Positions 10,852 through 39,141 of a stretch of DNA of 64,000 nt are shown in pieces. The position numbers and the translations under genes are program-made. The notes under the pieces are model-generated. The model had not been told where the DNA came from. It did not search any database and saw only the letters and a list, made by a program, of their open reading frames with translations. Within the stretch, counting starts at the first letter, position 1, and each line of letters opens with the position of its first letter. Origin of the DNA: a bacterium (lineage in GTDB: Bacteria; Zhuqueibacterota; Zhuqueibacteria; Residuimicrobiales; Krinioviventaceae); the NCBI GenBank assembly GCA_963675755.2, contig CAXXMD010000002.1, forward strand, positions 1,920,001 through 1,984,000, given 5' to 3'.

Positions 10852-12477
10852 ATGAAGAATAAAGTTCAGATCTTTGTATTGTTTACTATTCTTACCGGAA
10901 TTCTGTTTTTATCCTGCCAACCCAAAGCACCAATAGCTGAAGGTTGGGACCTCGTCCCTCAGATTCTCGCTCGCATTATTCCCCCTCAATTTCCTGATCG
11001 TGATTTTAATATAACGGATTACGGTGCCGTTGGTGACAGCACAACGTTATGCACGGAAGCTATTCAAAAAGCGATTGATGAATGTAACAGCCAGGGTGGC
11101 GGTCGGGTTGTAGTACCAGCCGGCAAGTTTTTGACAGGTGCAATTCGCCTAAAGAGTAATGTTAATCTGTATGTGGACAAGGAAGCAACTTTATTGTTCA
11201 GCACCAAACTAAAAGATTATTTACCTCTGGTTCATTCAAGGTACGAAGGTTCTGAATTGATGAATATATCCGCTTTAATTTATGCCGATGAACAGGAAAA
11301 CATTGCCTTAACCGGTGAAGGCATTCTGGATGGTCAGGCGAGCCGGGAGACCTGGTGGGGCCTGGGTCGTCTTGGCAGACCGGTGCAGGTTCCTGGCAGA
11401 CCGGCAAGGAATTGGCCGGCTGTTGATGAAACAATACTGGAAGGTATGCCGCCCGTAAATCCTGAACGGGCCGATTTGCGTGGAATGAATGAAAAACAAA
11501 TCCCTGTTGAAGAACGGATTTTTGGTCAGGGTCACTATCTCAGGGTAAATTTTGTTCAGCCGTTTAAATGTAAAAATGTTCTGATTGAGGGAGTAACAAT
11601 CAAGCGCTCACCCATGTGGGAATTGCATCCCCTGCTTTGTACCAACGTTACGGTTAGAAATGTAAAAACCATAACACATGGACCCAACAACGACGGCTGT
11701 GATCCTGAATCCTGCAAAGATGTGCTCATCGAAGGTTGTGTCTTTGATACGGGTGATGATTGTATTGCGATCAAATCCGGAAGAAATGATGATGGCCGTC
11801 GAATTGGCGTGCCTTGCGAAAATCTGATCATTCGCAATTGTATCATGAAAGACGGACATGCAGGTGTTGCAATTGGAAGTGAAATTTCGGGCGATTGTCG
11901 TAATGTTTTCGTTGAAGACTGTATAATGGACAGCCCCAATTTGGAAAGGGCCCTCAGAATAAAATCAAACTCTTTGCGTGGTGGAATTGTTGAAAACATA
12001 TATTTCCGAAATGTCAAGGTTGGAGAGGTTGCGGATGCCGTTGTACGTGTTTATTTTTATTATATGGAAGGCGATGCCGGAACCCATAAACCCATGGTCC
12101 GCAATGTTCACGTTGAAAACGTTACCAGTGAGAAAAGCCGATATGGTTTGCTGCTCAAAGGGTATTCGTACTCGCCTGTTACGGATATATATTTAAAAGA
12201 TTGTCAATTTAACAATTGTCGAGATGACAATAATGTTTTAAATGTGGAAAACATCCATCTTGAAAATGTTACGATTAATGGAAAAATGTACAACGAAACC
12301 CTTGATCACAAAGTCCCGGAAAACGTAGAATCCGCCGCAAAGGCAGAACTGGGTGAACGTGTTATATCTGATGTAAATGAAATTGAACTGGATGGTAAAA
12401 AGATTTACGAATTTGTCACACGCCAACGGTTTGAACGCGACACCATCAAGGTTGCACTCGACGGCTCGATTTTATAA
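10852..12477 (+). CDS. Glycoside hydrolase family 28 (polygalacturonase-like) lipoprotein
   Basis: Lipobox LFLSC; GH28 motifs NNDG, DDCIAIKSG, GHAG, RIKS. Confidence 0.93.
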   Translation: MKNKVQIFVLFTILTGILFLSCQPKAPIAEGWDLVPQILARIIPPQFPDRDFNITDYGAVGDSTTLCTEAIQKAIDECNSQGGGRVVVPAGKFLTGAIRLKSNVNLYVDKEATLLFSTKLKDYLPLVHSRYEGSELMNISALIYADEQENIALTGEGILDGQASRETWWGLGRLGRPVQVPGRPARNWPAVDETILEGMPPVNPERADLRGMNEKQIPVEERIFGQGHYLRVNFVQPFKCKNVLIEGVTIKRSPMWELHPLLCTNVTVRNVKTITHGPNNDGCDPESCKDVLIEGCVFDTGDDCIAIKSGRNDDGRRIGVPCENLIIRNCIMKDGHAGVAIGSEISGDCRNVFVEDCIMDSPNLERALRIKSNSLRGGIVENIYFRNVKVGEVADAVVRVYFYYMEGDAGTHKPMVRNVHVENVTSEKSRYGLLLKGYSYSPVTDIYLKDCQFNNCRDDNNVLNVENIHLENVTINGKMYNETLDHKVPENVESAAKAELGERVISDVNEIELDGKKIYEFVTRQRFERDTIKVALDGSIL

Positions 12478-12720
12478 TAGCCTATGGCTAATAACTAATA
12501 GCTATTAGCTTACACTTGACATTAGTCGTCTAACATTTCACTGGATTATAAACAACTATAATCGAAAATCAAGAGTCAACCTCCTAAAGGCTTGGGGCCT
12601 TTGGGAGGTCTTGATAAACATTTTTTAGTCAGGGGTATCTGATTGAATTCATATTCACAAAACATATAAAATTAAAAAACGAATATTTTTAACCAATCAT
12701 AGTAATCCCATAATCCTTTT

Positions 12721-13075
12721 AATCTGGGTGTAATCCTGTTAATGTGGGTTCATCTTTTAATCTTTGCAATCTGGATTTAATTCTTTAAATCTGGATAATC
12801 CTATAATCCTTTTAATCTAGGTTCAATCCTGGTAATCTGGGTGTAATTCTGTTAATGTGGGTTCATCTTTTAATCTTTGCAATCTGGATTCAATTCTTTA
12901 AATCTGGGTAATCCTATAATCCTTTTAATCTAGGTTCAATCCTGGTAATCTGGGTGTAATCCTGTTAATGTGGGTTCATCTTTTAATCTTTGCAATCTGG
13001 ATTCAATTCTTTAAATCTGGGTAATCCTATAATCCTTTTAATCGAGGTTCAATCCTGGTAATCTGGGTTCAATCC
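12721..13075. repeat. 113-bp tandem repeat x3, built from AATC-initiated ~9-11 nt sub-repeats
   Basis: AATGTGGGTTCATCTTTTAATCTTTGC at 12741, 12854 and 12967. Confidence 0.9.
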
Positions 13076-13245
13076 TGGTAATCCGGGTCTATCTTTTTTA
13101 ATCCGGATTATGATTTTCTATTGCTTTTTTCCAAAAAAATAACTTAATTACAATTGGAAGTACAGGGGCGGGCCAAAAGAGAAACCTTTCTATTTTTTAA
13201 CCAACATTTTCTGAATCCAAAAAATAAAGTATTGGGGAAAAAACC
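13060..13245 (+). promoter_or_regulatory. Leader/promoter region of the paralog array, copy 1
   Basis: Near-identical to 27061-27242 (TTCTATTGCTTTTTTCC...TAACTTAATTACAATTGGAAGTACAGGGGCGGGCCAAAAGAGAA). The exact -35/-10 boxes are not certain. Confidence 0.65.
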
Positions 13246-16200
13246 GTGAATACAATTAAATACGTATGCCTGTACATTTTTACATTTATTTCAGTAACTC
13301 TATCTCAAGACCTTCAAGTTCAATGGGTCAAAAATTTTGATTATGCTTACAGCATTGATTTTGCACATGATGGAGGATTTATTTTTCTGGCACGTGATGA
13401 AATATTCAAGATTGATGATCAAGGCACTGTTAAAGATGTTTGGCCGCTGGATTCAGAACATGAAAACCGACATTTTTATAATCTCCAAAAGTGCAATGAA
13501 GGGTATATAACAATTGGTACTGATGTGATTGAAAGCGGATATCTAGAACGCGTATTGTTAAAAAAAATTGACAATCAGGGCCGGCTGGTATGGGAAAGAT
13601 CAGATTACTCTTTCGGTGAAGATAGTGGTATATTAGCCAAACAAACACGTGACAATGGATACATACTTTATTACACTCACTGGAATCCGGCTGACCCACC
13701 GGCAAGCGGCCCCGATGACGATTTGATAATGAAAACGAACCCAAATGGAGAAGAAGAGTGGGATTATGAAGTTAGCTCTTCTGAAGGCGGCATCAATGCA
13801 TTACATCAAACAGCAGATAATGGTTATTTAGTAGCCTTTAACCAGGTTGGCGATTATGATGGTTTGTATGGTAGATTGCTCCGGTTAACCGCTGATGGTC
13901 AGGAACTCTGGGTAACAAAATATAAAGAGTATTTACAATACGCTTTACCAGTAGATAATGGTGGTTTCCTTATATGCGGTAACAATTATTCAAAGGACAA
14001 CCCTGTACGTGACACTGCTTACTTTAAAAAGGTAGATGAAAATGGAGATGAAATCTGGAAAAAGACCTTTCAATGTAAAATGTTAAATGCCAATTTAAAC
14101 AACATAACAAAATTGGACGACAATAGCTATCTGATATATGGATATATATATGATTCTTATTCGCAAACAAAAGGTTGGTTAATCAAAACGGATAATTTAG
14201 GCAATAAAATCTGGGAAAAGACATTTACAGAAATTGATAACATAAAACAAATTTTAAAAATATCTAACAATGAATTTCTTTTATTGGGTAAAAAAGATGA
14301 CTATAAAACGTTAATAAAACTACAAGAAAACACCCAGCAAGATCCCTCAAATTTTGCATTGTTAGACCCTTCGTTTTATAAATTGGGTATTGGTAAGCAG
14401 CTTGTTCTGGATTGGACCAGTATTGCCAATGCTTCATCATACCTCGTTGAAATAGCTGAAAACATTGAAATGTCAAATCCTTTCATTTCAAAAACGATTA
14501 CAAACAGTTCTTGTATCATCGATAGTTTGTCATATTCCACACAATATTATTGGAGGGTTAAAGCCCAATTCCCGGATGGCTCCGGTAAATGGTCTGGTAT
14601 CAGCACATTTACAACAATGATCCCTCCACACATAGAGTTTACTGGAACTGATAGGAATATCCTGTCATATGTAGATGTGGGCGATCAATATTACACGGAC
14701 AGAGATTATACTATAATAGAACTGCCTGATCCATTAAAAAATTGCCTGTGGATCAAAACACAAAATAGCGACAAATATTTAACTGATGATAATTATATTC
14801 AATTCCAGTTAACCAGAGATGCAACTGTCTATATTGCCTATGATAACCGGGCCAGCTCTGTTCCCTATTGGTTATCATCAAATTTTGAACAAACCGGGTA
14901 CACCATTCAGTGCTCTGATGAAGAAAGCAATTTTAATGTATGGAAGGGCCATTTTTCTACTGGTGATGTAACATTGGGAGCAAATTCAGCAAGCGGTGCA
15001 GAAGGTGTACTAACAAATTATGTTGTATTAATAGATATACCCATCCAGATGCTCGATCCCAGGGACAACAAATCAGGGGTTGGAAATAATTTGTACTTTA
15101 GCTGGGAACCATTGGGCAATTTCGGGGCCCATGATTTGCAAATCAGCAATACGCCAAACATGTCATCGCCCTTGTATAACATTACGAATATTGGGAATTC
15201 CAGGTATCTATTTGAAGGATTAGAGTACAATAATGACTATTATTGGAGAGTCAAAGCCCACAATCGTAACGATGAGAATGCATGGTGCCAGATACAAAAA
15301 TTTCATACAATGGATTACCCTAAAGTTAGTATTCATAGTTGGGATGATTATGTATTAACCTGGATTGAAGAAAATGATCAATACTATATTGACCGAAATG
15401 ATGTGGTTCTTTCCATCCCGGATCAGTTGAAAAATTTATTATGGATTAAAACCTCAAATAATAAAGAATATAATATTTTTGAAATTTACCTGAGGAATAA
15501 AGCAACTATCTATGTTGGATTTGATTCAAGGGCCACATCCCTGCCCAATTGGGTAACAGATAATTTTAGTAATACCGGTTTGAACATAAAAGTTTCGGAT
15601 GAAGCAAATGAATTAAATATATGGTCCAGAAATGTTGAAAAGGGCTATACCTACCTCCTGGCAAATATGGCCGAAGGTGCTGAAAATATCAAAAGCCATT
15701 ATATCGTTTTAATAGATACCAACCAGGTCCCTGCACTATCCGCTCATTTTGGTTCAGATGTAACCTCAGGAGTACTCCCATTGACTGTTAATTTCGCAGA
15801 CAGTTCTAAGGGTTTTATAACATCATGGTTATGGGATTTTGGCGACGGAATAACCTCTACTGAAAAAAATCCCACCTACACCTATGAAAACGTGGGCAGC
15901 TATTCAGTCAGCCTGACTGTAAGTAATTATGACAGTTCTAATACCATAACAAAAGAAAATTATATTACAGTTAAAAACATGATTGCTAATTTCAGTGCGG
16001 ATGTAACCATGGGACAAGCACCGCTTACCGTTAGTTTTACCGACAGTTCACTGGGCGAAATTGACGCATGGTTGTGGAAATTTGGAGACGGACTCACAAG
16101 CACATCACAAAATCCTACACACGTGTACACAAATGGCGACTCGTTCACCGTATCACTTTTTGTGCGCGGACCAGGTGGATCAAATACAATGGTCAAATCG

Positions 16201-16518
16201 AATTATATAATAGTCGACCATCCAACATCTATTGACGACATGGCCGGCATACCGGATAAATTCGATTTACTACCCAATTACCCCAATCCATTCAATCCGC
16301 AAACTACAATCCGGTTTGCAGTACCGAAAAGGTCATTTGTAAAAATTACTATATTTGATATAAACGGAAAACTGGTCCAGAACTTATTTTCCGGCACCAA
16401 AAATCCGGGGAATTATGCTATAACCTGGAACGCCTCAGGCTTTCCATCCGGCATGTACTTTATCAAAATGGATACAGATAGCTTTACGTCTGTTCAAAAA
16501 TGTATATTGGTTAAATGA
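13246..16518 (+). CDS. Secreted multidomain protein, array paralog 1 (type A, 2 PKD)
   Basis: Signal peptide; WEK/DGG propeller-like blades; FN3 (YYWRV) x2; unnamed YYxDR...WIKT...(L)GAN domain x2; PKD (WDFGDG) x2; NYPNPFNP C-terminal sorting domain. Confidence 0.9.
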   Translation: MNTIKYVCLYIFTFISVTLSQDLQVQWVKNFDYAYSIDFAHDGGFIFLARDEIFKIDDQGTVKDVWPLDSEHENRHFYNLQKCNEGYITIGTDVIESGYLERVLLKKIDNQGRLVWERSDYSFGEDSGILAKQTRDNGYILYYTHWNPADPPASGPDDDLIMKTNPNGEEEWDYEVSSSEGGINALHQTADNGYLVAFNQVGDYDGLYGRLLRLTADGQELWVTKYKEYLQYALPVDNGGFLICGNNYSKDNPVRDTAYFKKVDENGDEIWKKTFQCKMLNANLNNITKLDDNSYLIYGYIYDSYSQTKGWLIKTDNLGNKIWEKTFTEIDNIKQILKISNNEFLLLGKKDDYKTLIKLQENTQQDPSNFALLDPSFYKLGIGKQLVLDWTSIANASSYLVEIAENIEMSNPFISKTITNSSCIIDSLSYSTQYYWRVKAQFPDGSGKWSGISTFTTMIPPHIEFTGTDRNILSYVDVGDQYYTDRDYTIIELPDPLKNCLWIKTQNSDKYLTDDNYIQFQLTRDATVYIAYDNRASSVPYWLSSNFEQTGYTIQCSDEESNFNVWKGHFSTGDVTLGANSASGAEGVLTNYVVLIDIPIQMLDPRDNKSGVGNNLYFSWEPLGNFGAHDLQISNTPNMSSPLYNITNIGNSRYLFEGLEYNNDYYWRVKAHNRNDENAWCQIQKFHTMDYPKVSIHSWDDYVLTWIEENDQYYIDRNDVVLSIPDQLKNLLWIKTSNNKEYNIFEIYLRNKATIYVGFDSRATSLPNWVTDNFSNTGLNIKVSDEANELNIWSRNVEKGYTYLLANMAEGAENIKSHYIVLIDTNQVPALSAHFGSDVTSGVLPLTVNFADSSKGFITSWLWDFGDGITSTEKNPTYTYENVGSYSVSLTVSNYDSSNTITKENYITVKNMIANFSADVTMGQAPLTVSFTDSSLGEIDAWLWKFGDGLTSTSQNPTHVYTNGDSFTVSLFVRGPGGSNTMVKSNYIIVDHPTSIDDMAGIPDKFDLLPNYPNPFNPQTTIRFAVPKRSFVKITIFDINGKLVQNLFSGTKNPGNYAITWNASGFPSGMYFIKMDTDSFTSVQKCILVK

Positions 16519-16533
16519 TATTAGGAAAAAATC

Positions 16534-19500
16534 GTGAATACTTTAAAAAACGTATGCCTGTTTCTTATCTTAAGCTTTTCAGTAGTATTATCTCAGGACC
16601 TCCAAATTCAATGGGCAAAAACATATGATTATGAATATGCCAATAACATTGACTTTGCACATGATGGAGGATATATTTTTACAACAGGTGATGATAATAA
16701 AGCCATTGTCAAGATTGACAAACATGGCATTGTTCAGGAAGATTGGCCGCTAGACCCTGGCCAAATCCCCGATTATCGTTATCTACAAAAGTGCAATGAA
16801 GGATATATATTAATAGGTAGTCCAAATGATGTAATGTTGAAAAAACTTGACAATCAGGGCCAGCAGGAATGGGAAAAATTCTTTTACAATAAGGATTCCA
16901 AGTCTGATGAGGCTAGCTATTCTTATTACGATTATGGCAGATTGGTAATACAAACACATGACAATGGTTACATTCTTGCGTGTAATTCAAGGGAAACTGT
17001 AAGTATTTGGGGACAATATGATATCTCCAAAGACATTTGGATAATAAAAACTGACCCAAATGGGGAAAAACAGTGGGATTGTTGGATTTGGGGTGGTTAC
17101 TTTTCCGAGGAACCTCGAGCAATACATCAAACATCTGACAATGGTTATATTGTCGCCTGTAACGACAATAAAGACGATTATGGCCATCTATATCGGTTAA
17201 CATCAGACGGCCAGATAATCTGGCAAAAAGAATATAACGAGTATATAGGATACGCGTTACCAGCAGATGATGGTGGATTCTATATATGTGGTAAAAATTA
17301 TTTAAAAAAGGTAGACAAAGATGGAGATTTAATTTGGGAAAAGACTTTACAATATGAATTGTCAGATTCTAATTTAAAAAACATGATAAAATTTGATGAC
17401 AACAGCTATCTATTATGTGGAAACGTTTTTGATTCAGATACGCAATCATGGAAGAATTTATTAATCAAAACGGATAACTTTGGCAATAAAATATGGGAAA
17501 AAACATTTACAGAAATTTCTGGTATAAGTCAAGTTTTGAAAATCACCAATAATGAATTTATTTTATTTGGTAGCAAGGGAGGCCTTGTAACAATAGTAAA
17601 AATTATTGAAAAAATCCAACAAGATCCCACAAAAATTGAATTATTAGATCCTGTAAACTATAAAATGGGAGTTGGTACACAAGTTTGTCTGGATTGGACC
17701 AGCATCTCAAATGCCTCCTCATATCTCCTTGAATTAGATGATGATAGCGACATGTCTAGCCCCATCATTTCAAAAACAATTACAAACAGTTCAAATTGTA
17801 TTATTAACGACCTTTCATACTCTACTCAATATTATTGGAGGGTCATGGCCCAATTCCCGGATGAATCTGGTAATTGGTCTGATATCAGAACTTTTATTAC
17901 AATGCTTCCTCCACACATAGAGTCTAGTGAACCGGAAGGTTACTACTTGTCATATGTGGATGTAGGAGATCAATATTATACAGACAGAGATTATACCATA
18001 ACAGAATTGCCTGATCAGTTGAACAATTGCATATGGATCAAAACCCAAAATAGTGACAAATATTTAACAGATGACAATTACATTCAATTTCAGTTAACCA
18101 GAGATGCAACTGTCTATATTGCCTACGACAACCGTGCCAGTGCTGTTCCCCAATGGTTAACATCTAATTTTGAGCAAACCCAATTCACTATAGAAAGTAC
18201 TGATGAATACTGTAATTTTAATGTCTGGAAGGGCAAATTCTCAGCAGGTGATGTAACACTGGGTGCCAATTTGGCAACCGGAGCAGAGGGTGTGCAAACA
18301 AATTATGTTGTATTCATAGATATACCAATCCAAATGCTCGACCCCAGGGAAAACAAATCAGGTGTTGGAAAAAATTTATACTTAAGCTGGGAAGCATTGG
18401 GCAATTTCGGGAAATACGATTTTCAAATCAGTGATAATCAGGACATGTCAAACCCCTTTTATAATATAACCAACATAGAGTATACCAGGTATAAAATAAG
18501 AGACTTGGAATATAATAAAGACTATTATTGGAGGGTCAAAGCACACAATCGTAACGATGAGGATGCGTGGTGCCAGACACATAAATTTCATACAATGGAT
18601 GATCACAATATTTATTTTTGGGTTAATAGTAATTATGCATTATCCTGGCTTGAAGAAAATGATCAATACTATGTTGATCGAAATGATGTGGTCCTCTCCA
18701 TCCCCGATCCGTTAAAAAATTTACTGTGGATCAAAACGAAAGATGATAATGCAGATATAGATGAGCCTATTGGACATCTCATGGAAATTGAATTTAAAAA
18801 AGAAGCAACCCTCTATGTCGGTTTCGATTCAAGGGCTGTTTCACTACCAAACTGGGTAACAAACTATTATAAAAATACCGGATTGACCATAAAAGTTTCT
18901 GACGAAGCAAATGAATTAAATATATGGTCCAGAAATGTTACAAAAGGCTGGGTCTACTTGGGATTCAATATGGCAAAAGGCGCTGAAAACATCAACAGTC
19001 ATTATGTCGTTTTAATAGACACCAACCAGGTACAACCTCTCTCTGCTCATTTCAGTTCAGATGTGACATCAGGAGTGTCCCCGTTAACCGTTAATTTCTC
19101 TGACAGTTCTCAAGGTCTGATAACATCTTGGGCATGGAATTTTGGCGACGGAAAAACCTCAACAGAAAAAAATCCCTCCCACACCTATGGAAACGCGGAA
19201 AGTTACACCGTTAGCTTGACCGTGAGTGGTATGGGCGGTTCTGATACCATAGAAAAAGAAAATTACATAACCGTATATGAAACAACACCACTTGCTAAAT
19301 TCGGTTCAGACAAAATATCAGGAGAACTACCATTGACCGTCAATTTTTCTGACAGTTCTCATGGGATAATAGAATCCTGGGTATGGAATTTTGGTGATGA
19401 GTCAACATCTACAGAACAGAATCCTTCACACACCTATGAAAACGCGGGACGGTATACAGTCAGCTTGACAGTAAGTGGGCCATACGGTTCTGATACCTTA

Positions 19501-20076
19501 ACAAAAGAAAATTACATTATCGTAAAAAAAGCGGTCCCAATAGCAAATTTTGGTTCAGATGTAATCATGGGGCAAGCTCCGCTAACTGTCAGCTTTAGAG
19601 ACAGTTCGCTGGGTGAAATCGATTCCTGGTTGTGGAAATTTGGAGACGGACTCACAAGTACAGCGCAAAATCCAACTCACGTGTACACATCTGCAGACTC
19701 TTTTACTGTAACATTATTCGTATATGGACCCGGTGGATCAAATACAATGATCAAATCGAATTATATAATAGTTGACCACCCAACATCCATAAACGACATG
19801 GCCGGGATACCGAAAAAATTCAATCTGCTACCCAATTACCCCAATCCATTCAATCCGCAAACCACTATCCGCTTTGCGGTACCCAAAAGGTCATTTGTAA
19901 AAATAAATGTATATGATGTAAATGGTAAACGGGTAAACAATTTGTTCTCCGGAATCAAAAACCCGGGATATTTTTCACTCACATGGGATGCAACAGGATT
20001 TCCATCCGGCATGTATTTCATCAAAATGGATACGGATACTTTTACGTCTGTTAAGAAATGTATCTTGGTCAAATAA
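16534..20076 (+). CDS. Secreted multidomain protein, array paralog 2 (type B, 3 PKD)
   Basis: Same architecture with three PKD repeats; GTG start 15 bp after the previous stop. Confidence 0.9.
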   Translation: MNTLKNVCLFLILSFSVVLSQDLQIQWAKTYDYEYANNIDFAHDGGYIFTTGDDNKAIVKIDKHGIVQEDWPLDPGQIPDYRYLQKCNEGYILIGSPNDVMLKKLDNQGQQEWEKFFYNKDSKSDEASYSYYDYGRLVIQTHDNGYILACNSRETVSIWGQYDISKDIWIIKTDPNGEKQWDCWIWGGYFSEEPRAIHQTSDNGYIVACNDNKDDYGHLYRLTSDGQIIWQKEYNEYIGYALPADDGGFYICGKNYLKKVDKDGDLIWEKTLQYELSDSNLKNMIKFDDNSYLLCGNVFDSDTQSWKNLLIKTDNFGNKIWEKTFTEISGISQVLKITNNEFILFGSKGGLVTIVKIIEKIQQDPTKIELLDPVNYKMGVGTQVCLDWTSISNASSYLLELDDDSDMSSPIISKTITNSSNCIINDLSYSTQYYWRVMAQFPDESGNWSDIRTFITMLPPHIESSEPEGYYLSYVDVGDQYYTDRDYTITELPDQLNNCIWIKTQNSDKYLTDDNYIQFQLTRDATVYIAYDNRASAVPQWLTSNFEQTQFTIESTDEYCNFNVWKGKFSAGDVTLGANLATGAEGVQTNYVVFIDIPIQMLDPRENKSGVGKNLYLSWEALGNFGKYDFQISDNQDMSNPFYNITNIEYTRYKIRDLEYNKDYYWRVKAHNRNDEDAWCQTHKFHTMDDHNIYFWVNSNYALSWLEENDQYYVDRNDVVLSIPDPLKNLLWIKTKDDNADIDEPIGHLMEIEFKKEATLYVGFDSRAVSLPNWVTNYYKNTGLTIKVSDEANELNIWSRNVTKGWVYLGFNMAKGAENINSHYVVLIDTNQVQPLSAHFSSDVTSGVSPLTVNFSDSSQGLITSWAWNFGDGKTSTEKNPSHTYGNAESYTVSLTVSGMGGSDTIEKENYITVYETTPLAKFGSDKISGELPLTVNFSDSSHGIIESWVWNFGDESTSTEQNPSHTYENAGRYTVSLTVSGPYGSDTLTKENYIIVKKAVPIANFGSDVIMGQAPLTVSFRDSSLGEIDSWLWKFGDGLTSTAQNPTHVYTSADSFTVTLFVYGPGGSNTMIKSNYIIVDHPTSINDMAGIPKKFNLLPNYPNPFNPQTTIRFAVPKRSFVKINVYDVNGKRVNNLFSGIKNPGYFSLTWDATGFPSGMYFIKMDTDTFTSVKKCILVK

Positions 20077-20091
20077 TATTAGGGGGAAACC

Positions 20092-23000
20092 GTGAATAAA
20101 ATAAAAAAAATATGTCTATTTATCTTCTCAATTGTTTCAATAGCACTATCTCAAGACCTGCAAATTCAATGGTCAAAAACATATGATTATAAATATGCTA
20201 ATAACATTGACTTTGCACATGATGGAGGATATGTTTTCACAACATATGACGATAAAACTATTGTAAAGATTGACAAACATGGCATTGTTCAGGAAGATTG
20301 GCCGCTAAATTCTGGAGAAAATCCCATCATTAGTTATCTACAAAAGTGCAATGAAGGCTATATAATATTAAGTACTACTCCAATGTTGATAAAACTTGAC
20401 AACCAGGGCCGGCAGGAATGGGAAAAACAATATTACGAAAATAAATATGGTGAAGTTGATTATTGGTACACTGGTGAATTTGTCAAACAAACTCATGACA
20501 ATGGATACATTCTTTTTTGTACTAAAAACAATAATGCTGATCCCTCGGGTTCCCGCAAGAGCTTTATGTTTATTAAAACGGACCTCAATGGGGAAAAAGA
20601 GTGGCAAAGTGGGGCCAGTGGTGATTATTATGGAAAAAATACGTCTAAAGCAGTACATCAATTATCAGATGGTGGCTATATTTTCGCCTACAACAACGAT
20701 GATGGCGGCCTGACCCGGTTATCACCAGACGGCAAGGATATCTGGGAGAAAAGATATGACGAATATTTAGAATATACCTTGCCAGCAGATGATGGTGGAT
20801 TCTTTATTTGCGGTCGAGATTATACTAAAGATACCTATTCTTCCGAAACCGCTTATTTAAAAAAAGTAGACCAAAATGGAGATGAAATTTGGAAAAAAAC
20901 ATTCCAAAATGCTTCATCCTATTCTTTGCTCAATAACATTGAATTATTGAATGATGGTAATATTTTGGTATGTGGTAAAATAGTAGATACATCTGATTGG
21001 TCCTCTTCTGAGTGCTGGCTAATTAAAACGGATAGTTTAGGCAATAAAATATGGGAAAAAACTTTTTCAGAACTTGATGACATAAAACAAATTTTGAAAA
21101 TTGATAACAATGAATTCCTTTTATTCGGCATAAAGGACTATTATACAACGATAATGAAAATCAAAGAAAACGATCCCAAAGACCCCTCAAGTTTTGCATT
21201 ATTAGATCCTGTATTCCATAAATTGGGAGTTGGTACCCAACTTTGTCTGGATTGGTCCAGCATTGCAAATGCGTCATCATACCTCGTTGAAATTGATGAC
21301 AGCATTGACATGTCAAATCCCCTCATTTCAAAAACAGTTTCAAACAGTTCAGGTTGCATAATTAAGGACCTGACCTACTCAACTCAATATTATTGGAGGG
21401 TCAGGGCCCAATTCCCGGATGGATCCGGCAAATGGTCCGGTATCAGCACCTTTACAACAATGATTCCTCCACACATAGAGCTTGATGGTAAAAAAAACAA
21501 CATGTCTTATGTGGACGTCAGAGATCAATACTATACAGACAGAGATTACACAGTGACAGGACTTTCTGATGAATTGAAAAATTGTCTATGGATAAAAACT
21601 CAAAACAGCGACAAATATTTAACTGATGACAATTACATACAGTTTAATTTAAAAAGAGATGCAACTGTCTATGTAGCCTATGACAACCGGGCAAGTTCTG
21701 TACCCCATTGGTTATCATCAGGATTTGAACTAACTGAACACACCATTCAGAATTCTGATGAAGAAAGTAATTTTAATATCTGGAAGGGCAGATTCCCGGC
21801 AGGTGACGTAACATTAGGGGCCAATTCGGCAAGCGGAGCAGAGGGTGCGCAGACAAATTATGTTGTATTAATAGATGTTCCACTGCAGATACTTGACCCC
21901 AGGGACAACAAATCAGGGATTGGTAATGATTTAATCTTGAGCTGGGAGACACTGGGCAATTTCGGGTCATATGACCTACAAATCAGCGAATATCAGGACA
22001 TGTCCATTCCATTATATAATATTACAAACATCATGAATCCCAAGTATCGGATTGAAGAGCTGGACTATAATAAAGATTATTTTTGGAGAATCAAAGCACA
22101 CAATCGTAACGATGAGAATGCATGGTATCAGACACAAAAATTTCATACAATGCGTGAACCTCACATTAAAATTTTGTGGCAAGACGAATATTTATTATCC
22201 TGGCTTGAAGAAAATGAACAATATTATATTGACTGTAATCATGTGGTCCTTTCTATCCCTGATCAATTAAAAAATTTACTGTGGATCAAAACAGCAAATG
22301 ACGATGCGGATATAATTTATAGTTTTCCTCTGGAATTTCGATTACAAAGTGATGCAACCATCTATGTGGGCTTTGATTCAAGGGCCACTGCATTGCCAAA
22401 CTGGGTAACTGAACATTATAGCAACACCGGTTTATCCATAACAGTTTCTGATTCAGCAAATGAATTAAATATATGGGCCAGAAATGTTATAAAAGGTGAT
22501 ATCGAGTTGGGATTTAATATGGCAGAAGGCGCTGAAAATATCAAAAGTCATTATGTCGTTTTGATAGACACCAATCAGGTCCCCCCCTTGTCCGCTCATT
22601 TTGGTTCAGATGTAACCTCAGGAGTACTCCCATTGACCGTTAATTTCGCAGACAGTTCTAAGGGTTTTATAACATCATGGTTATGGGATTTTGGTGATGG
22701 AACGACCTCTACAGAAAAAAATCCCTCCCACACCTTTAAAAACTCGGGAAACTATAACGTTAGCCTAACCGTGATTGGTATGGGAAGTTCTGATACAATA
22801 ACAAAAGAAAATAATATTACAGTTAAAAACATGATTGTAAATTTCAGTGCGGATGTGACCATGGGAAAAGCGCCACTCACTGTGAGTTTTACCGACAGTT
22901 CACTGGGCGAAATTGACGCATGGTTATGGAAATTTGGAGACGGACTCACAAGCACGTCTCAAAATCCAACGCATGTATACACATCTGGCGACTCGTTCAC

Positions 23001-23370
23001 CGTATCGCTTTTTGTGCGCGGACCAGGTGGATCTAATACAATGGTAAAAACGAATTTCATAATAGTAGACCATCCAACATCCATTGATGACATGGCCGGT
23101 ATACCGGATAAATTCGATTTACTTCCCAATTATCCCAATCCGTTTAATCCGCAAACCACAATCCGGTTTGCGGTACCTAAAAAGTCTTTTGTAACATTAA
23201 CAGTATATGATATAAACGGAAAACAGGTAAGCAATTTGTTCTCCGGAATCAAAAACCCGGGATATTTTTCACTCACATGGAACGCCTCAGGCTTTCCATC
23301 CGGCATGTATTTCATCAAAATGGATACGGATACCTACTCGTCTGTTCAAAAATGTATACTGGTTAAATAA
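20092..23370 (+). CDS. Secreted multidomain protein, array paralog 3 (type A, 2 PKD)
   Basis: Same architecture; 15-bp spacer. Confidence 0.9.
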   Translation: MNKIKKICLFIFSIVSIALSQDLQIQWSKTYDYKYANNIDFAHDGGYVFTTYDDKTIVKIDKHGIVQEDWPLNSGENPIISYLQKCNEGYIILSTTPMLIKLDNQGRQEWEKQYYENKYGEVDYWYTGEFVKQTHDNGYILFCTKNNNADPSGSRKSFMFIKTDLNGEKEWQSGASGDYYGKNTSKAVHQLSDGGYIFAYNNDDGGLTRLSPDGKDIWEKRYDEYLEYTLPADDGGFFICGRDYTKDTYSSETAYLKKVDQNGDEIWKKTFQNASSYSLLNNIELLNDGNILVCGKIVDTSDWSSSECWLIKTDSLGNKIWEKTFSELDDIKQILKIDNNEFLLFGIKDYYTTIMKIKENDPKDPSSFALLDPVFHKLGVGTQLCLDWSSIANASSYLVEIDDSIDMSNPLISKTVSNSSGCIIKDLTYSTQYYWRVRAQFPDGSGKWSGISTFTTMIPPHIELDGKKNNMSYVDVRDQYYTDRDYTVTGLSDELKNCLWIKTQNSDKYLTDDNYIQFNLKRDATVYVAYDNRASSVPHWLSSGFELTEHTIQNSDEESNFNIWKGRFPAGDVTLGANSASGAEGAQTNYVVLIDVPLQILDPRDNKSGIGNDLILSWETLGNFGSYDLQISEYQDMSIPLYNITNIMNPKYRIEELDYNKDYFWRIKAHNRNDENAWYQTQKFHTMREPHIKILWQDEYLLSWLEENEQYYIDCNHVVLSIPDQLKNLLWIKTANDDADIIYSFPLEFRLQSDATIYVGFDSRATALPNWVTEHYSNTGLSITVSDSANELNIWARNVIKGDIELGFNMAEGAENIKSHYVVLIDTNQVPPLSAHFGSDVTSGVLPLTVNFADSSKGFITSWLWDFGDGTTSTEKNPSHTFKNSGNYNVSLTVIGMGSSDTITKENNITVKNMIVNFSADVTMGKAPLTVSFTDSSLGEIDAWLWKFGDGLTSTSQNPTHVYTSGDSFTVSLFVRGPGGSNTMVKTNFIIVDHPTSIDDMAGIPDKFDLLPNYPNPFNPQTTIRFAVPKKSFVTLTVYDINGKQVSNLFSGIKNPGYFSLTWNASGFPSGMYFIKMDTDTYSSVQKCILVK

Positions 23371-23385
23371 TATTAGGGAAAAACC

Positions 23386-26300
23386 GTGAACACAATAAAA
23401 AATATATGTTTGTTTCTTGTTTTGAGCTTTTCAATAGTATTATCTCAAGACCTTCAAATTCAATGGTCAAAAACATATGATTATAAATATAAACTTGGCA
23501 ATAACATTGATTATGCACATGATGGCGGATTTATTTTTACAAAAGGGAATAATGGGATTGTTAAGATTGATAATCAAGGTATTATTCAAGAGGATTGGCC
23601 ACTGGATACAGTGCCTGATAACCAATCCATAAATTATCTCCAAAAGTGCAATGAAGGTTATATAACAATAGGTACTAATTATCAGGTGGATGGAGGCAAA
23701 CGCAAGGTCGTGCTGAATAAACTTGACAATCAGGGCAGAATTGAATGGGAAAAACTCTATTATAATGAAAATTATCTTAATGAAGAGGGACAAGAAGTCA
23801 AAGTTCACGACTTTGGTGATTTGATTAAACAGACACGCGACAATGGTTACATTCTTGCGTGTACTTCAATGGATAGATATGAGGAGCAATCGGTTTTCAC
23901 CGCAAATTTTTGGTTAATTAAAATTGACCAAAATGGAGAAATAGAATGGGAAACCAGGTTTGGGGGTGATTTCAATGAATACTATTCTTTTAGTACAGTA
24001 TATCAAACACCGGACGATGGCTTTTTGTTTTCCTTTAACGACAAAAAAGAAGGATTGCTCAGATTAACACCAGATGGTCAGGAAATCTGGAGAAAAAAAT
24101 ATGATGAAGCCATAAATCAAACCTTACCAGCAGATGATGGCGGGTTCTCTGTAAGCGGGGGAAATTATTTACAAAAGGTAGACGAAAATGGTGATGAAAT
24201 TTGGAAAAAGACCATTCAACATGAATCAGTAAATTCCGCTTTAAGAGACATGGTTATATTGGATGACAATAGCTATCTCTTGTGTGGAGGAATTTTAGAA
24301 TCATATCCATATTTCACAAAGGGCTGGTTAATCAAAACGGATAGTTTAGGTAATAAAATATGGGAAAAAACTTTTCCAGAAATTGATATCATTAAGCAAG
24401 TTTTACAAATCTCCAACAATGAATTTATTTTATTTGGTGAAAAGGATGAATATATAACGATAATAAAAATCAAAGAAACAGACCCAAATGACCCAACAAA
24501 ACTTGAATTATTAGAACCGGTAAATTATAAAATGGGAATAGGCAATCAACTTGTTCTGGATTGGACCAGCATTGCCAATGCGTCATCATACTTTATAGAA
24601 ATAGATGAAAACATTGAAATGTCAAATCCTCTCATTTCAAAAACAATATCTAACAATTCAAATTGTATTATTAAAGATTTATCCTATTCAACACAATATT
24701 ACTGGAGAGTCAGGGCCCAATTCCCGGATGGTTCCGGTAACTGGTCTGGCATCAGCACATTTACAACAATGTCCCCTCCACACATCGAGTTTAATGGACA
24801 AAAAGAATTCAACATGTCTTATGTGGATATTGGGGACCAATATTACACGGACAGAGAGTATACAATAACAGGACTGCCGGAAGCATTAAAAAATTGTCTG
24901 TGGATGAAAACCTCAAATAGAGAAAAATATTTAACAGATGACAATTACGTTCAATTTCAGTTAAAAAGAGACGCAACCATCTATATTGCCTATGACAACC
25001 GGGCCAGCGCCGTTCCCTATTGGTTATCATCCGGGTTTGAACAAACCGAATATACCATTCAGAATTCTGATTCAGAAAGTAATTTTAATGTCTGGAAAGG
25101 TCAATTCTCAACAGGTGATGTAACACTGGGGGCCAATATGGCAACCGGAGCCGAGGGTGTGCAAACAAACTATACTGTATTAATAGTTATACCGTTACAA
25201 ATGCTTGATCCCAGAGATAATAAAACAGGTATTGGTAATAATGTTATCTTTAGCTGGGAAGCAATAGGTAATTTTGAGAATTATGATTTACAAATCAGTG
25301 ATAATCAGGACATATCAAATCCCATTTATGATATTACCGATATAGAGTACACCAGTCATAAAATAAGAAATTTAGACTATAATAAAGACTATTACTGGAG
25401 GATCAAAGCACACAATCGTGACGATGAGGATGCCTGGTACCAGACACAAAAATTTCATACTATGGATGATCCCCATATTCGTGTATGGGGTAGTCGAGGG
25501 GGTTATGTTTTATCCTGGCTTGAAGAAAATGAACAATACTATGTTGATCGTAATCATGTAATTCTTTCTATCCCTGATCCATTAAAAAATCTACTATGGA
25601 TTAAAACAAATAATGATGATGCAAATCTGGATACAGAAATAAATTTTGATTATGGTCGTCCTCTGGCAATTAAATTAGAAAATAAAGCGACTATTTATGT
25701 GGGTTTTGATTCAAGGGCGACATCCCTGCCAAACTGGGTAACAGACTATTATAAAAATACCGGATTGACTATATCAGTTTCTGACAAAGCAAAAGAATTA
25801 AATATATGGGCCAGAAAGGTTTACAAAGGTGAAACTGTCCTGGGTTCGAATATGGCAAAAGGCGCTGAAAACATAAAAAGTCAGTATATCGTTTTACTGG
25901 ATTTATACCCCCTGTTGGCTAAATTCGATTCAGATGTAACAAAAGGAGTACTACCTTTGACCGTAAATTTCTCAGACAGTTCTCAGGGAAAAATAGAATC
26001 CTGGGCGTGGGATTTCGGTGATGGATCGACCTCTTTAGAACAGAATCCCTCCCACACCTATAAAAACGCGGGAAGTTATACCGTTAGCCTGACAGTAAGT
26101 GGTCCTGACACTTTTGATACAATCATAAAAGAAAATTTTATTACCGTATACAAAACAACACCGGTTGCCAATTTCGATTCAGACAAAACATCAGGAGTAC
26201 TACCGTTAACTGTTAATTTCTCCGACAGCTCTAATGGGCTTATCGAATCCTGGGCTTGGGATTTTGGTGACGGCGTTACTTCTACAGAGCAAAATCCTTC

Positions 26301-26949
26301 CCATACCTATGAAAACGTGGGCAGCTATACAGTCAGCCTTACAGTCAGTAATCTAGACAGTTCTGATACCATAATAAAAGAAAATTACATTACAGTAAAA
26401 AAACCGTCCCCTATTGCAAATTTTGGTGCCGATGTTACAAATGGCCTACTACCACTTAGTGTTAGTTTTACAGACAGTTCACTAGGAGATATTGTTTTCT
26501 GGTACTGGAGCTTTGGTGACGGACTCACAAGCACGTCTCAAAATCCAACGCACGTGTACTCATCTGCTGACTCGTTCACTGTGTCCTTAACGGTATGTGA
26601 TCCCCGGGGATCAGATACAATGGTCAAAACGAAATATATTATTGTGGATCATCCAACATCCATTGATGACATGGCCGGTATACCGGATAAATTCGATTTA
26701 CTTCCCAATTATCCCAATCCATTTAATCCGCAAACTACAATCAGGTTTGCGATACCGAAAAAATCATTTGTAAAAATAAATGTATATGATGTAAATGGTA
26801 AATGGGTAAGCAATTTAATCTCCGGAATCAAAAACCCGGGGAATTATGCTATAACCTGGAATGCCTCAAGCTTTTCATCCGGCATGTATTTCATCAAGAT
26901 GGATACGGATGCCTACTCTTCTGTTCAAAAATGTATACTGGTTAAATAA
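23386..26949 (+). CDS. Secreted multidomain protein, array paralog 4 (type B, 3 PKD)
   Basis: Same architecture; 15-bp spacer. Confidence 0.9.
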   Translation: MNTIKNICLFLVLSFSIVLSQDLQIQWSKTYDYKYKLGNNIDYAHDGGFIFTKGNNGIVKIDNQGIIQEDWPLDTVPDNQSINYLQKCNEGYITIGTNYQVDGGKRKVVLNKLDNQGRIEWEKLYYNENYLNEEGQEVKVHDFGDLIKQTRDNGYILACTSMDRYEEQSVFTANFWLIKIDQNGEIEWETRFGGDFNEYYSFSTVYQTPDDGFLFSFNDKKEGLLRLTPDGQEIWRKKYDEAINQTLPADDGGFSVSGGNYLQKVDENGDEIWKKTIQHESVNSALRDMVILDDNSYLLCGGILESYPYFTKGWLIKTDSLGNKIWEKTFPEIDIIKQVLQISNNEFILFGEKDEYITIIKIKETDPNDPTKLELLEPVNYKMGIGNQLVLDWTSIANASSYFIEIDENIEMSNPLISKTISNNSNCIIKDLSYSTQYYWRVRAQFPDGSGNWSGISTFTTMSPPHIEFNGQKEFNMSYVDIGDQYYTDREYTITGLPEALKNCLWMKTSNREKYLTDDNYVQFQLKRDATIYIAYDNRASAVPYWLSSGFEQTEYTIQNSDSESNFNVWKGQFSTGDVTLGANMATGAEGVQTNYTVLIVIPLQMLDPRDNKTGIGNNVIFSWEAIGNFENYDLQISDNQDISNPIYDITDIEYTSHKIRNLDYNKDYYWRIKAHNRDDEDAWYQTQKFHTMDDPHIRVWGSRGGYVLSWLEENEQYYVDRNHVILSIPDPLKNLLWIKTNNDDANLDTEINFDYGRPLAIKLENKATIYVGFDSRATSLPNWVTDYYKNTGLTISVSDKAKELNIWARKVYKGETVLGSNMAKGAENIKSQYIVLLDLYPLLAKFDSDVTKGVLPLTVNFSDSSQGKIESWAWDFGDGSTSLEQNPSHTYKNAGSYTVSLTVSGPDTFDTIIKENFITVYKTTPVANFDSDKTSGVLPLTVNFSDSSNGLIESWAWDFGDGVTSTEQNPSHTYENVGSYTVSLTVSNLDSSDTIIKENYITVKKPSPIANFGADVTNGLLPLSVSFTDSSLGDIVFWYWSFGDGLTSTSQNPTHVYSSADSFTVSLTVCDPRGSDTMVKTKYIIVDHPTSIDDMAGIPDKFDLLPNYPNPFNPQTTIRFAIPKKSFVKINVYDVNGKWVSNLISGIKNPGNYAITWNASSFSSGMYFIKMDTDAYSSVQKCILVK

Positions 26950-27242: not shown

Positions 27243-30200
27243 ATGAATACGATTAAAAACGTATGCCTGTTTATCTTGTCAATTATTTCAATAACACTAT
27301 CACAAGACCTTCAAATTCAATGGGCAAAAACATATGATTATGAATCTGGTAGTTACATGAACATTGACTTTGCACATGATGGCGGATTTGTTTTCACAAC
27401 ATATGACGATAAAACTATTGTCAAGATTGACAATCATGGTATTGTTCAGGAAGACTGGCCGCTGGATTTAGGAAAAATTCCCATCTATGGTTATCTACAA
27501 AAGTGCAATGAAGGATATATATTAATAAGCACTGTTCGTCATGAAGGCAAATTGAAGGCATTACTGAAAAAACTTGACAATCAGGGTCGTCTGGAATGGG
27601 AAAAATACTATTACGAAGATGATCATGGTGAAGTTAATGTCTGGAACTCGGGTGAATTTGTTAAACAAACACAAGACAATGGTTACATTCTTTTTTGTAC
27701 TTCAAACAATAATGCTGATCCATCGGGTTCTCGCTTGAGCTTTTGGTTTATTAAAACAGACCCTTATGGAGAAATCGAGTGGGAAAGTGGGGCCAGTGGT
27801 GATTTTTATGGATCAAATACATCTATAGATGTACATCAATTATCTGATGGTGGTTATATTTTCGCATATAACAACGATGATGGCGGCTTGACCCGGTTAT
27901 CACCAGACGGTCATGATATTTGGGAAAAAAGATATGACCAATATATAAAATACGTTTTACCAGCAAATAATAGTGGTTTCTTTATTGGCGGTAATTATTA
28001 TTTATCAGATGCTAATACACAAGGTACCGTCTATTTAAAAAAGGTTGACGAAAATGGAGATGAAATTTGGATTAAGACTTTTCAAAATGACTCGAAAGCT
28101 TTATATACAAGAAACATGATACTGTTGGATGACAATAGCTGTCTATTATGTGGGAGTAGTTTAGAACCAGGTTCGTATACATCAAATGGTTGGATAATCA
28201 AAGCTGACAGTTTAGGTAATAAAATCTGGGAAAAAAATTTCCCAGAAATTAATAACATAAATCAAGTTTTAAAAATATCCGAAAATGAATTTCTTGTATT
28301 CGGTGAAAAAGATGATCGGGTAACCATAATAAAACTACAAGAAAACGACCCCAACGATCCCACAAAACTTGAATTATTAGAACCAGTAAACCATAAATTA
28401 GGGGTAGGCAATCAACTCTGTCTGGACTGGACCAGCGTGGCCAATGCTTCATCATATCTCGTTGAATTAGATGATGACAGTGACATGTCAAGCCCCCTCC
28501 TTTCCAAAACAGTTTCAAACAGTTCAAGTTGTATAATAAACGACCTGGCAGATTCAACACAGTATTATTGGAGAGTCAGGGCCCAATTCCCGGAAGGCCC
28601 GGGTAACTGGTATGGTATTAACACATTTACAACCATGCTCCCTCCACACATGGAATTTAGTGAACAGGAAGGTTACTACTTGTCATATGTAGATGTTGGT
28701 GATCAATATTATACAGACAGAGATTACACAATAACGGAACTGCCAGATCAATTTAAAAATTGTATATGGATCAAAACCCCGGATAGTGAAAAATATTTAA
28801 CAGATGACAATTACATTCAATTTCAGTTAAAAAGAAACGCAACCGTCTATATTGCCTATGACAACCGGGCAAGCTCTGTTCCCTATTGGTTATCATCCGG
28901 GTTTGAACAAACCGAATACACCATACAGAATTCTGATGAAGAAAGTAATTTCACTGTCTGGAAAGGCCAATTCACAGCAGGGGATGTAGCATTAGGGGCC
29001 AATTCAGCAAGCGGCGCAGAAGGTGTACTAACAAATTATGTTGCATTCATAGATATCCCACTTCAAATGCTTGACCCCAGGGACAACAAGTCCGGAGTGG
29101 GAAAAGATTTAAGCTTTAGCTGGGAAGCGATAGGAAATTTCGAAAATTACGATCTGCAAATCAGCGATAATCAGGTCATGTCAAGTCCCTTATCTTATAT
29201 TACCAACATAAAGTATACCCGCTATATTTTAAGAGATCTGGATTATAATAAAGACTATTACTGGAGGATCAAAGCTCACAATTGCAACGATGAAAATTCA
29301 TGGTACCAGACACAAAAGTTCCATACTATGAATGAACCTATAGTTAAATTGAGTGAATATGAATATTATATATTATCCTGGCTCGAAGAAAATGATCAAT
29401 ATTATATTAACCAAAATGATGTAATTCTTTCCATTCCAGATCAGTTAAAAGGTTTACTGTGGGTCAAAACTGCAAATAATGATTTAGCCTTGGAATATGA
29501 TTCATTTTATATTCACCCGGAGAAAGAAGTAACTATTTATGTCGGTTTTGATTCAAGGGCCACCTCACTTCCAAACTGGGTAACAGACGACTTTAAAAAC
29601 ACAGGGTTAACCATAACTGTTTCTGATTCAGCAAATGAATTAAATATATGGACCAGAAATTTAAACAAAAGCATATTTTCCTTTGGCGAATGCTGGGCAG
29701 AAGGCGCTGAAAACATTAAAAGCCAGTATGTCGTTTTAATAGACACCAACCAGGTAGCGCCCCTATCCGCAAAATTTGATTCAGATGTGACATTGGGAGT
29801 ACCCCCGTTGACTGTTAATTTCTCAGACAGTTCTCAGGGCTTTATAACATCATGGCTATGGGATTTTGGCGACGGAATAACCTCTACTGAAAAAAATCCC
29901 ACCCACACCTATGAAAACGTGGGCAGCTATTCAGTCAGCCTGACTGTAAGTAATTATGACAGTTCTAATACCATAACAAAAGAAAATTATATTACAGTTA
30001 AAAACATGATTGCTAATTTCAGTGCGGATGTAACCATGGGACAAGCACCGCTTACCGTTAGTTTTACCGACAGTTCACTGGGCGAAATTGACGCATGGTT
30101 GTGGAAATTTGGAGACGGACTCACAAGCACATCACAAAATCCTACACACGTGTACACATATGGCGACTCGTTCACCGTATCACTTTTTGTGCGCGGACCA

Positions 30201-34133: not shown

Positions 34134-34148
34134 TATTTGGGGAAAACC

Positions 34149-39119: not shown

Positions 39120-39141
39120 TATGATTTATTGGAGCCGGAAA

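Follow-up and report, generated by a model that had tools for sequence, protein, structure and literature searches.

The closest known relatives of the protein domain described here are, by descent, the C-terminal domains of two glycoside hydrolases (GH) of solved structure, the GH2 beta-glucuronidase 6HPD and the GH138 enzyme BP0997 (6HZE/6HZF), which share its fold and detectable sequence homology. This domain, which we term X, is about 140 residues long and occurs as two copies, X1 and X2, in each of seven tandem paralogs encoded in a 64,000-nucleotide stretch of a Zhuqueibacterota genome (GenBank assembly GCA_963675755.2, contig CAXXMD010000002.1, positions 1,920,001 to 1,984,000 of the forward strand; hereafter, the window). 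In both settings X-type domains are accessory modules of secreted glycan-active proteins. However, 6HPD and 6HZE each carry a single copy, C-terminal in a catalytic protein, whereas two copies are present here in a non-catalytic surface protein that otherwise comprises a propeller, fn3 domains, and PKD domains. 6HPD also lacks several residues that are conserved in the family, with DL in place of DR and DT in place of DxR.

By function, the nearest systems would be, by analogy, beta-sandwich carbohydrate-binding modules (CBMs) and recombining surface-protein families. Beta-jelly-roll CBMs (CBM4, 27, 28, 29, and 35 type) are likewise beta-sandwich accessory modules of about 140 residues, found on carbohydrate-active enzymes (CAZymes) and esterases, and binding sites in them are known on a sheet face as well as in end loops. 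However, X has no sequence relation to them, and its structural similarity to CBM27, CBM28, CBM4, and others (Z 3.3-4.6, including 4.6 to TmCBM27 and 3.9 to CBM28) falls within the range of chance resemblance among common arrangements. Recombining multigene surface-protein families of the cassette type likewise comprise tandem paralogs with a conserved framework, short hypervariable tracts, and independent mosaic blocks. In contrast to those families, the copies described here are full-length and apparently co-expressed; neither silent cassettes nor invertible promoters were observed, and the host is an uncultured, probably KSB1-type environmental bacterium. Antibodies, variable lymphocyte receptors, and the variable proteins of diversity-generating retroelements (DGRs) offer a functional analogy only, in that a rigid scaffold bears a small number of hypervariable segments, which probably come together on one surface. 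Here the fold appears to be another one, strands as well as loops vary, no reverse transcriptase was found, and the diversity exists between paralogs in the germline instead of arising somatically.

The pattern that we report, a conserved framework interrupted by a hypervariable patch in X2, is real and unusually clean, and it is carried by an unnamed but widespread module. The most likely explanation, which we hold with about even confidence, is that the patch acts as a paralog-specific ligand-recognition face that determines specificity, probably for glycans.

Hypervariable segments of X2

An initial annotation of this locus had described three hypervariable segments (V1, V2, and V3) that interrupt a near-invariant framework in the X2 domain of all seven paralogs, with X1 remaining conserved. 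Translation of the seven open reading frames (ORFs) reproduced all of the V1, V2, and V3 strings and the framework motifs, apart from small deviations in the latter (LWVKT in paralog 5 and AKG for AEG in paralogs 2, 4, and 7). The span that had been assigned to these segments, 15300-15725, agrees with the X2 domain of paralog 1 at 15313-15726. In this paralog, V1 comprises X2 residues 1-13 (15313-15351; a linker, strand b1, and the b1-b2 loop), V2 comprises residues 48-63 (15454-15501; the length-variable b4-b5 loop, strand b5, and a turn), and V3 comprises residues 108-118 (15634-15666; the b8-b9 turn, strand b9, and the next loop). All features of the array are on the + strand.

The corresponding X2 domains lie at 18598-19029 in paralog 2 (V1 18598-18636, V2 18739-18804, V3 18937-18969), 22153-22578 in paralog 3 (V1 22153-22191, V2 22294-22353, V3 22486-22518), and 25465-25902 in paralog 4 (V1 25465-25506, V2 25609-25686, V3 25819-25851), the last of which has the longest V2 (26 residues). 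Those of paralogs 5, 6, and 7 are at 29331-29753 (V1 29331-29369, V2 29472-29528, V3 29661-29693), 32655-33086 (V1 32655-32696, V2 32799-32861, V3 32994-33026), and 36402-36827 (V1 36402-36440, V2 36543-36602, V3 36735-36767), respectively. The three hypervariable segments are present in X2 of every copy of the gene, which includes the seven tandem paralogs (w1-w7), two paralogs elsewhere in the same genome (one of which is denoted c1), and eight paralogs in the genome of a sister taxon in the same genus (G001; denoted rA or rB), and they differ from paralog to paralog. The segments are located in the middle of the proteins and differ between paralogs by indels of up to 10 residues.

In an alignment of the seven window paralogs (A1), entropy peaked at columns 781-790 (1.83), 831-850 (1.42-1.79), and 891-905 (0.90-1.16), compared to 0.2-0.6 elsewhere in X2 and in X1. 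When X1 and X2 of the same seven proteins were profile-aligned, mean entropy in X2 was 1.77 in V columns versus 0.38 in the rest, while the equivalent values for X1 were 0.65 and 0.43. X2 was more variable than X1 across the 42 V columns (Wilcoxon p = 6.6e-8) and was not across the other columns (p = 0.42). High-entropy columns were also clustered, with 11 runs observed versus 22.1 expected and none of 10000 permutations yielding as few. Extending the comparison to all 17 genes identified 14 columns above the entropy threshold in X2, all of them within V, and none in X1. Mean identity among the nine paralogs of the genome was 26.4% in the combined V segments, compared to 81.0% in the X2 framework, 76.8% in X1, and about 70% in the fn3 domains. 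Thus, X1 is not as variable as X2, and the constancy described in the initial annotation holds for the V2 and V3 equivalents of X1. It does not extend to the V1 equivalent (A1 columns 551-560; the first strand and loop), which is moderately variable (entropy 1.46, dN/dS 0.42).

Fold of the X domain and placement of the segments

Neither X1 nor X2 matched a model in Pfam or NCBIfam, and a search of the ESM Atlas with X returned unnamed clusters only. A search of Protein Data Bank chain sequences with the X1-fn3-X2 region yielded chance matches (MS2 coat protein, E >= 1e-4, 50 residues), which were dropped once profile and fold searches identified 6HPD. An AlphaFold2 (AF2) model of X2 from paralog 1, generated with a 55-sequence alignment, had a mean predicted local distance difference test (pLDDT) score of 94.1 and a predicted TM score of 0.89, with no segment below 50, and comprised ten strands and one short helix. 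In VIA comparisons this model aligned to residues 848-990 of 6hpd_A with a Z score of 18.4 (root mean square deviation 2.3, 134 of 138 residues aligned, 19% identity) and to residues 731-873 of 6hze_A (GH138) with a Z score of 12.6; the next best match had a Z score of 5.4. Immunoglobulin (Ig)-like entries appeared only at Z scores of about 3.4-3.5, and the best structural relatives are non-Ig sandwiches. Foldseek likewise matched 6HPD and 6HZE (TMq of 0.80 and 0.72, respectively). Since a profile of 55 X domains matches residues 865-988 of 6hpd_A with E = 2.8e-15, the relationship to 6HPD reflects homology beyond a resemblance in fold. X is a large beta-sandwich family, and the C-terminal domains of 6HPD and 6HZE are its homologues.

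At E <= 1e-3, a profile built from the 14 X domains in the window matched 3172 representative clusters defined at 50% identity, of which 1546 also passed E <= 1e-10; members occur in proteins from many phyla. Among 179 matching proteins that were listed or previously fetched, 162 carried two to six X copies. Partner domains include GDSL esterases, GH43-like domains, DUF1080, peptidases (M4, M28, and C1), GH5, Kelch, FG-GAP, PKD, and type IX secretion system (T9SS) tails. X is discretely appended to carbohydrate-active enzymes, as relatives carry GH43-like, GH5, GDSL esterase, DUF1080, GH2, and GH138 domains. Residues conserved in the family comprise Y25, D27, R28, T47, N49, D71, R73, P78, W80, L115, N118, and Y130 (X2 numbering), all of which are kept in X1 and most of the 17 X2 copies. 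The X2 domains of w5 and rA3 are exceptional in having lost D27, R28, and N118 together (D27N, R28Q, and N118C). The NDDK motif of the family, which adjoins V2, is altered in X2: its K52 is replaced by A in 13 of the 17 copies.

In the X2 model, each V segment is one strand (b1 at residues 5-8, b5 at 56-60, and b9 at 111-115) together with its adjoining loops, rather than a plain loop. Because block pLDDT over the V regions is 80-98, the segments are not disordered linkers, and the description of X2 as a well-folded framework with three ordered, paralog-specific segments is borne out. The suggestion of three antibody-like loops, akin to complementarity-determining regions, gives way to strand-plus-loop segments on a jelly-roll-like sandwich related to 6HPD and 6HZE. 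Positions 5, 7, 56, 58, 60, 113, and 115, which are hydrophobic in the family, stay hydrophobic in all 17 X2 copies, and variability is maximal at the alternating polar positions (4, 6, 8, 57, 59, 112, and 114) and in the loops. Outside V, the paralogs hardly differ in X2, including at positions for which entropy in the wider family exceeds 3.

To evaluate the relative placement of the strands, we conducted mean-field direct coupling analysis (DCA) on 454 and then 583 X domains (effective number of sequences 363 and then 457) and ranked 9453 residue pairs. The b7-b8 hairpin and b6-b8 ladder, which served as positive controls, scored high. Pairs joining b5 and b9 were reciprocal best partners and ranked 28 (58-113), 103 (57-114), 113 (55-116), and 171 (59-112), and those joining b1 and b5 ranked 81 (8-55), 484 (6-57), and 616 (4-59). 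The covariation thus provides good support for adjacency of the V2 and V3 strands and indicates that V1 probably adjoins V2. Two sheet orders remain, in which b5 is flanked by b1 or by b4; the ranks of exposed pairs favour b1, and the core pair 45-58 is the sole DCA support for pairing of b4 with b5. V1, V2, and V3 probably fit one solvent-exposed patch, as judged from covariation rather than from measured geometry.

Strong DCA couplings also link D27, R28, N49, D71, R73, D96, N118, and S128. We infer that these residues form a conserved polar cluster in loops at the end of the domain where the loops of V1 and V2 and the last part of V3 lie, such that the upper loops of the patch would border D27, R28, N49, D71, R73, D96, and N118. 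The coupling of D27, R28, and N118 to one another hints that these three residues form one site that was abandoned in the X2 domains of w5 and rA3.

Evolutionary rates, mosaicism, and competing explanations

Synonymous divergence among paralogs is high in all domains (dS 0.55-0.9), which indicates that purifying selection, rather than recent homogenisation, maintains the framework. The ratio of nonsynonymous to synonymous rates (dN/dS, or omega) ranges from 0.14 to 0.20 across the fn3 domains, X1 (0.17), the X2 framework, the last PKD domain, and the C-terminal sorting domain (CTD), and it rises to 0.31 for the signal peptide and 0.46 for the propeller. By segment, omega is 0.99 in V1, 1.01 in V2, and 0.27 in V3 (dS saturated). 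When positions were classed by hydrophobicity in the distant family, and thus independently of the paralogs, omega in X2 was 0.74 at V-exposed, 0.80 at V-buried, and 0.18 at non-V exposed positions; the same classes in X1 yielded 0.20, 0.05, and 0.20. Among four recent ortholog pairs, the counts of nonsynonymous and synonymous changes (N/S) were 14/5 in V compared to 21.5/30.5 in the framework (Fisher odds ratio 3.8, p = 0.031).

The genes are mosaics that result from recombination between paralogs, in which the V segments, the X1-fn3-X2 block, the propeller, and the PKD/CTD tail have separate histories. Nucleotide identity between w4 and rA5 is 97-100% only at residues of about 481-822 (X1-fn3-X2), compared to 56-87% in the propeller and first fn3 domain and 66-89% in the PKD/CTD tail. 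For w5/rA3 and c1/rB1, identity is mostly 95-100% as far as residue 822 or so (89-94% in a few windows) and 71-96% beyond it. As C-terminal dS in these near-identical orthologs is 0.65-0.77, compared to 0.03-0.15 upstream, each genome has undergone its own exchange of the C-terminal stalk (PKD/CTD, residues of about 830-1090) among paralogs. The number of PKD domains varies as well, being two or three. In the pair w1/rA1, identity is 82-96% in the flanks and drops to 67% precisely in the windows that hold V1 and V2, and V1 of w1 resembles that of rA2.

Trees of the individual domains are in conflict with one another. w1 pairs with rA1 in the tree of the N-terminal (propeller) domain (support 100) and with rA2 in the tree of X2 (support 96), while w4 and rA5 are paired only in X2 (support 99). 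In approximately unbiased (AU) tests of groups that were chosen after the trees were seen, the N-domain data rejected w1+rA2 (p = 3e-5) and the X2 data rejected w1+rA1 (p = 0.0019); the N-domain data for w4+rA5 gave p = 0.076. Because X2 and the propeller have been reassorted between the genomes, the propeller and V patch are not obligately coupled. This weakens an earlier suggestion that the X2 segments co-evolve with the variable N-terminal domain.

Given these data, the V1-V3 strands and loops would form one exposed patch beside the conserved polar cluster, and this patch would serve as the specificity-determining ligand face of X2, with glycans as putative ligands. X1 may be the constant copy that supplies a common, conserved binding function, and the array may equip the cell surface with a set of related receptors, from a locus flanked by glycan-degradation genes. 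A more elaborate version, which we offer tentatively, is that the locus encodes a germline surface-receptor repertoire on an unnamed CBM-like scaffold, wherein X1 would provide a constant anchor site, the X2 patch and propeller would provide paralog-specific recognition, and short-tract recombination would reassort V, X1-fn3-X2, the propeller, and the stalk independently.

Several observations weigh against a recognition face. No omega above 1 was found for V (about 0.74-1.0), such that the positive selection raised as a test in the initial annotation is not shown, and buried V positions evolve fast as well (omega 0.80). Tyrosine is found at 8.3% of V-exposed positions versus 0.4% of other exposed X2 positions; however, this is near the 6.4% expected from random codons in these AT-rich genes and is not diagnostic, and aromatic enrichment was dropped as a decisive signature of binding after this comparison. 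Orthologs with dS of 0.03-0.15 differ in V by one nonsynonymous and no synonymous change (w5-rA3) or by none and one, respectively (c1-rB1); conservation of V between orthologs was rejected as evidence of purifying selection, since the two genomes are too close. The loss of three residues of the conserved cluster from X2 of w5 looks like decay, and the one-face geometry derives from covariation with modest ranks for b1, not from coordinates. Finally, full-text literature searches, which did not cover the primary papers on 6HPD and 6HZE, yielded no demonstrated ligand for the X family.

The main rival, which we regard as possible if doubtful, is relaxed constraint, in which X2 is mainly a structural spacer whose b1/b5/b9 face has no partner, such that outward residues and loop lengths drift neutrally while the fold is kept. 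Because no omega exceeds 1, rate data alone cannot separate diversifying selection from an absence of constraint, and the near-random tyrosine content, the degenerate NDDK motif of X2, and the lost cluster residues in w5 and rA3 are all in keeping with drift. Against this, other exposed X2 positions, X1, the fn3 domains, and PKD evolve at omega of 0.13-0.2, and confinement of a free patch to three adjacent strands would be unusual. Moreover, isoleucine, leucine, and valine together account for 4.9% of V-exposed residues versus 28% expected from random codons; because these residues are avoided and the positions stay polar, they are not simply random sequence. The remaining surface of X2 is invariant where the wider family is highly variable, which indicates that X2 as a whole is under strong selection.

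Escape from recognition, in which pressure from phages, predators, or competitors diversifies the patch as the best-exposed epitope or receptor site of an abundant surface protein, and recombination between paralogs shuffles the variants, seems unlikely. It would account for short diverged tracts that fall exactly at V1 and V2 in w1 versus rA1 (67%, compared to 82-96% in the intervening and following X2 windows), for the incongruent X2 and N-domain trees, and for surface display via the T9SS; yet all nine copies are complete and in tight, operon-like arrays rather than in an expression site with silent cassettes, phase-variation elements were not seen (no search was aimed at them), and w5/rA3 and c1/rB1 keep identical or near-identical V segments across two species. 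We assign still less weight to an interface in which the patch packs against the propeller, which is variable as well, or a variable partner protein, and co-varies with it. Although the propeller is the sole other strongly variable domain (48.5% identity) and travels with V in three of the four recent ortholog pairs, w4 and rA5 have V segments that are 94% identical with propellers that are 52% identical (dS 0.71), w1 and rA1 share a propeller (82%) and not V, the AU tests reject the swapped groupings of w1, and fn3, X1, and fn3 domains separate the propeller from X2 in sequence. Targeted hypermutation by a DGR is favoured solely by a superficial likeness, hypervariable segments in a conserved scaffold, but no RVT_1 matches were found in the 98% complete genome, whereas control genomes did match, and it is paralogs that differ here, as opposed to a template and its variable repeat. 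The missing reverse transcriptase and the mid-protein indels among V segments exclude it for practical purposes.

Architecture and genomic setting of the array

The array comprises seven ORFs encoding 1090-1190 residues, arranged head to tail at 13246-37619, with intergenic gaps of no more than 15 nucleotides except for 293 nucleotides before paralog 5. The window thereby holds seven of nine duplicated genes for T9SS-exported, probably surface-anchored proteins. Paralogs 1 (13246-16518, 1090 residues, two PKD domains), 2 (16534-20076, 1180 residues, three PKD domains), 3 (20092-23370, 1092 residues), and 4 (23386-26949, 1187 residues, three PKD domains) precede this gap, and paralogs 5 (27243-30545, 1100 residues), 6 (30561-34133, 1190 residues, three PKD domains), and 7 (34137-37619, 1160 residues; alternative GTG start at 34149) follow it. 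The remaining two X1+X2 paralogs were identified by hmmsearch of the genome (6.48 Mb, three contigs) on another contig (C3:43242-50118); the same search of the genome returned eight other proteins with a single X. In the sister genome G001 the eight paralogs are arranged as 6 + 2. A copy with 49% identity was found in a genome of the same family, and the closest relative outside of the genus is a protein labelled candidate division KSB1 by its source, so that the host is probably a KSB1-type bacterium.

Each protein comprises, in order, a putative signal peptide, a seven-bladed propeller, fn3, X1, fn3, X2, two to three PKD domains, and a T9SS sorting domain. Pfam detected fn3, two to three PKD, and Por_Secre_tail domains above cut-offs and no catalytic domain in the window proteins (fn3, PKD_4, and Por_Secre_tail in paralog 1), and within the N-terminal 350 residues gave weak PQQ_2 and BNR hints only. 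The propeller of paralog 1 (13306-14355) was modelled by AF2 as 28 strands in seven four-stranded blades (pLDDT 84.2), and its top Foldseek match was the propeller of CylK (TMq 0.74), with those of BamB and YxaL also matched. With a mean identity of 48.5% among the nine paralogs of the genome, it is the most variable domain. Paralog 7 carries an additional blade-like repeat of about 43 residues in this region (A1 columns 215-257) and possibly has eight blades. X1 of paralog 1, the canonical, conserved X sandwich, is at 14620-15042 and is followed by the second fn3-like domain (15043-15312; boundaries from the alignment). Pfam matched fn3 in two stretches in paralogs 4 and 7 and in one in paralog 1 (residues 385-455, the first fn3); the second fn3-like domain was itself matched only in paralog 7, as Ig_Rha78A_N (residues 717-754, 28.0 bits versus a cut-off of 27.4).

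All seven N-termini contain, by eye, a hydrophobic stretch followed by LSQD, consistent with a putative signal peptide. The CTD is near-invariant across the seven paralogs and matched Por_Secre_tail (PF18962) at 45-51 bits (cut-off 27) in the three that were scanned; in paralog 1 this type A sorting domain (16279-16506) scored 51.3 bits to PF18962 and 45.3 to TIGR04183 (cut-off 23). The T9SS translocon gene SprA (TIGR04189), the only component searched for, is present in the genome (C3:1879556-1885587, 518 bits versus a cut-off of 200). Its match is split over two adjacent open frames (654 and 1456 residues), which could reflect a frameshift, a split gene, or an error in the assembly.

The array sits in a glycan-degradation neighbourhood that encodes GH28, a WbsX/GH99-like protein, GH92 with PA14, and a sulfatase, together with an IS3-type transposase. 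These neighbours span 10852-12477, 37911-42090, 46523-48022, and 44299-45180, with GH28 on one side of the array and the WbsX/GH99-like and GH92/PA14 genes on the other. Upstream of paralog 1, at 12690-13110, are tandem repeats of about 120 bp with short units of the type aatcc..taatctgg, possibly a regulatory element or a recombination hotspot. A second tandem array outside of the window (C2:1326577-1339102) encodes four T9SS proteins (1021-1062 residues), each with a single X and three PKD domains, and two of these (C2_1332780 and C2_1329648) have degenerate X motifs in which YD.RA is lost. Strand b9 is conserved in this second array, which indicates that the V-type pattern is not general to arrays of X proteins.

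The X family merits attention in its own right: it is large, has no Pfam or NCBIfam model, often occurs in two to six tandem copies, has two solved representatives, and could warrant a new entry as a domain or CBM family. If the reading of X2 as a recognition module is true, X would constitute a compact, well-folded scaffold of 140 residues with a naturally tolerant three-strand face, and the array would be a natural binder system with a framework and a hypervariable face in an uncultured, probably KSB1-type bacterium. Should the patch be a specificity determinant, an uncultured, polysaccharide-degrading lineage would have built a panel of receptors through duplication and modular recombination, without dedicated mutagenic machinery.

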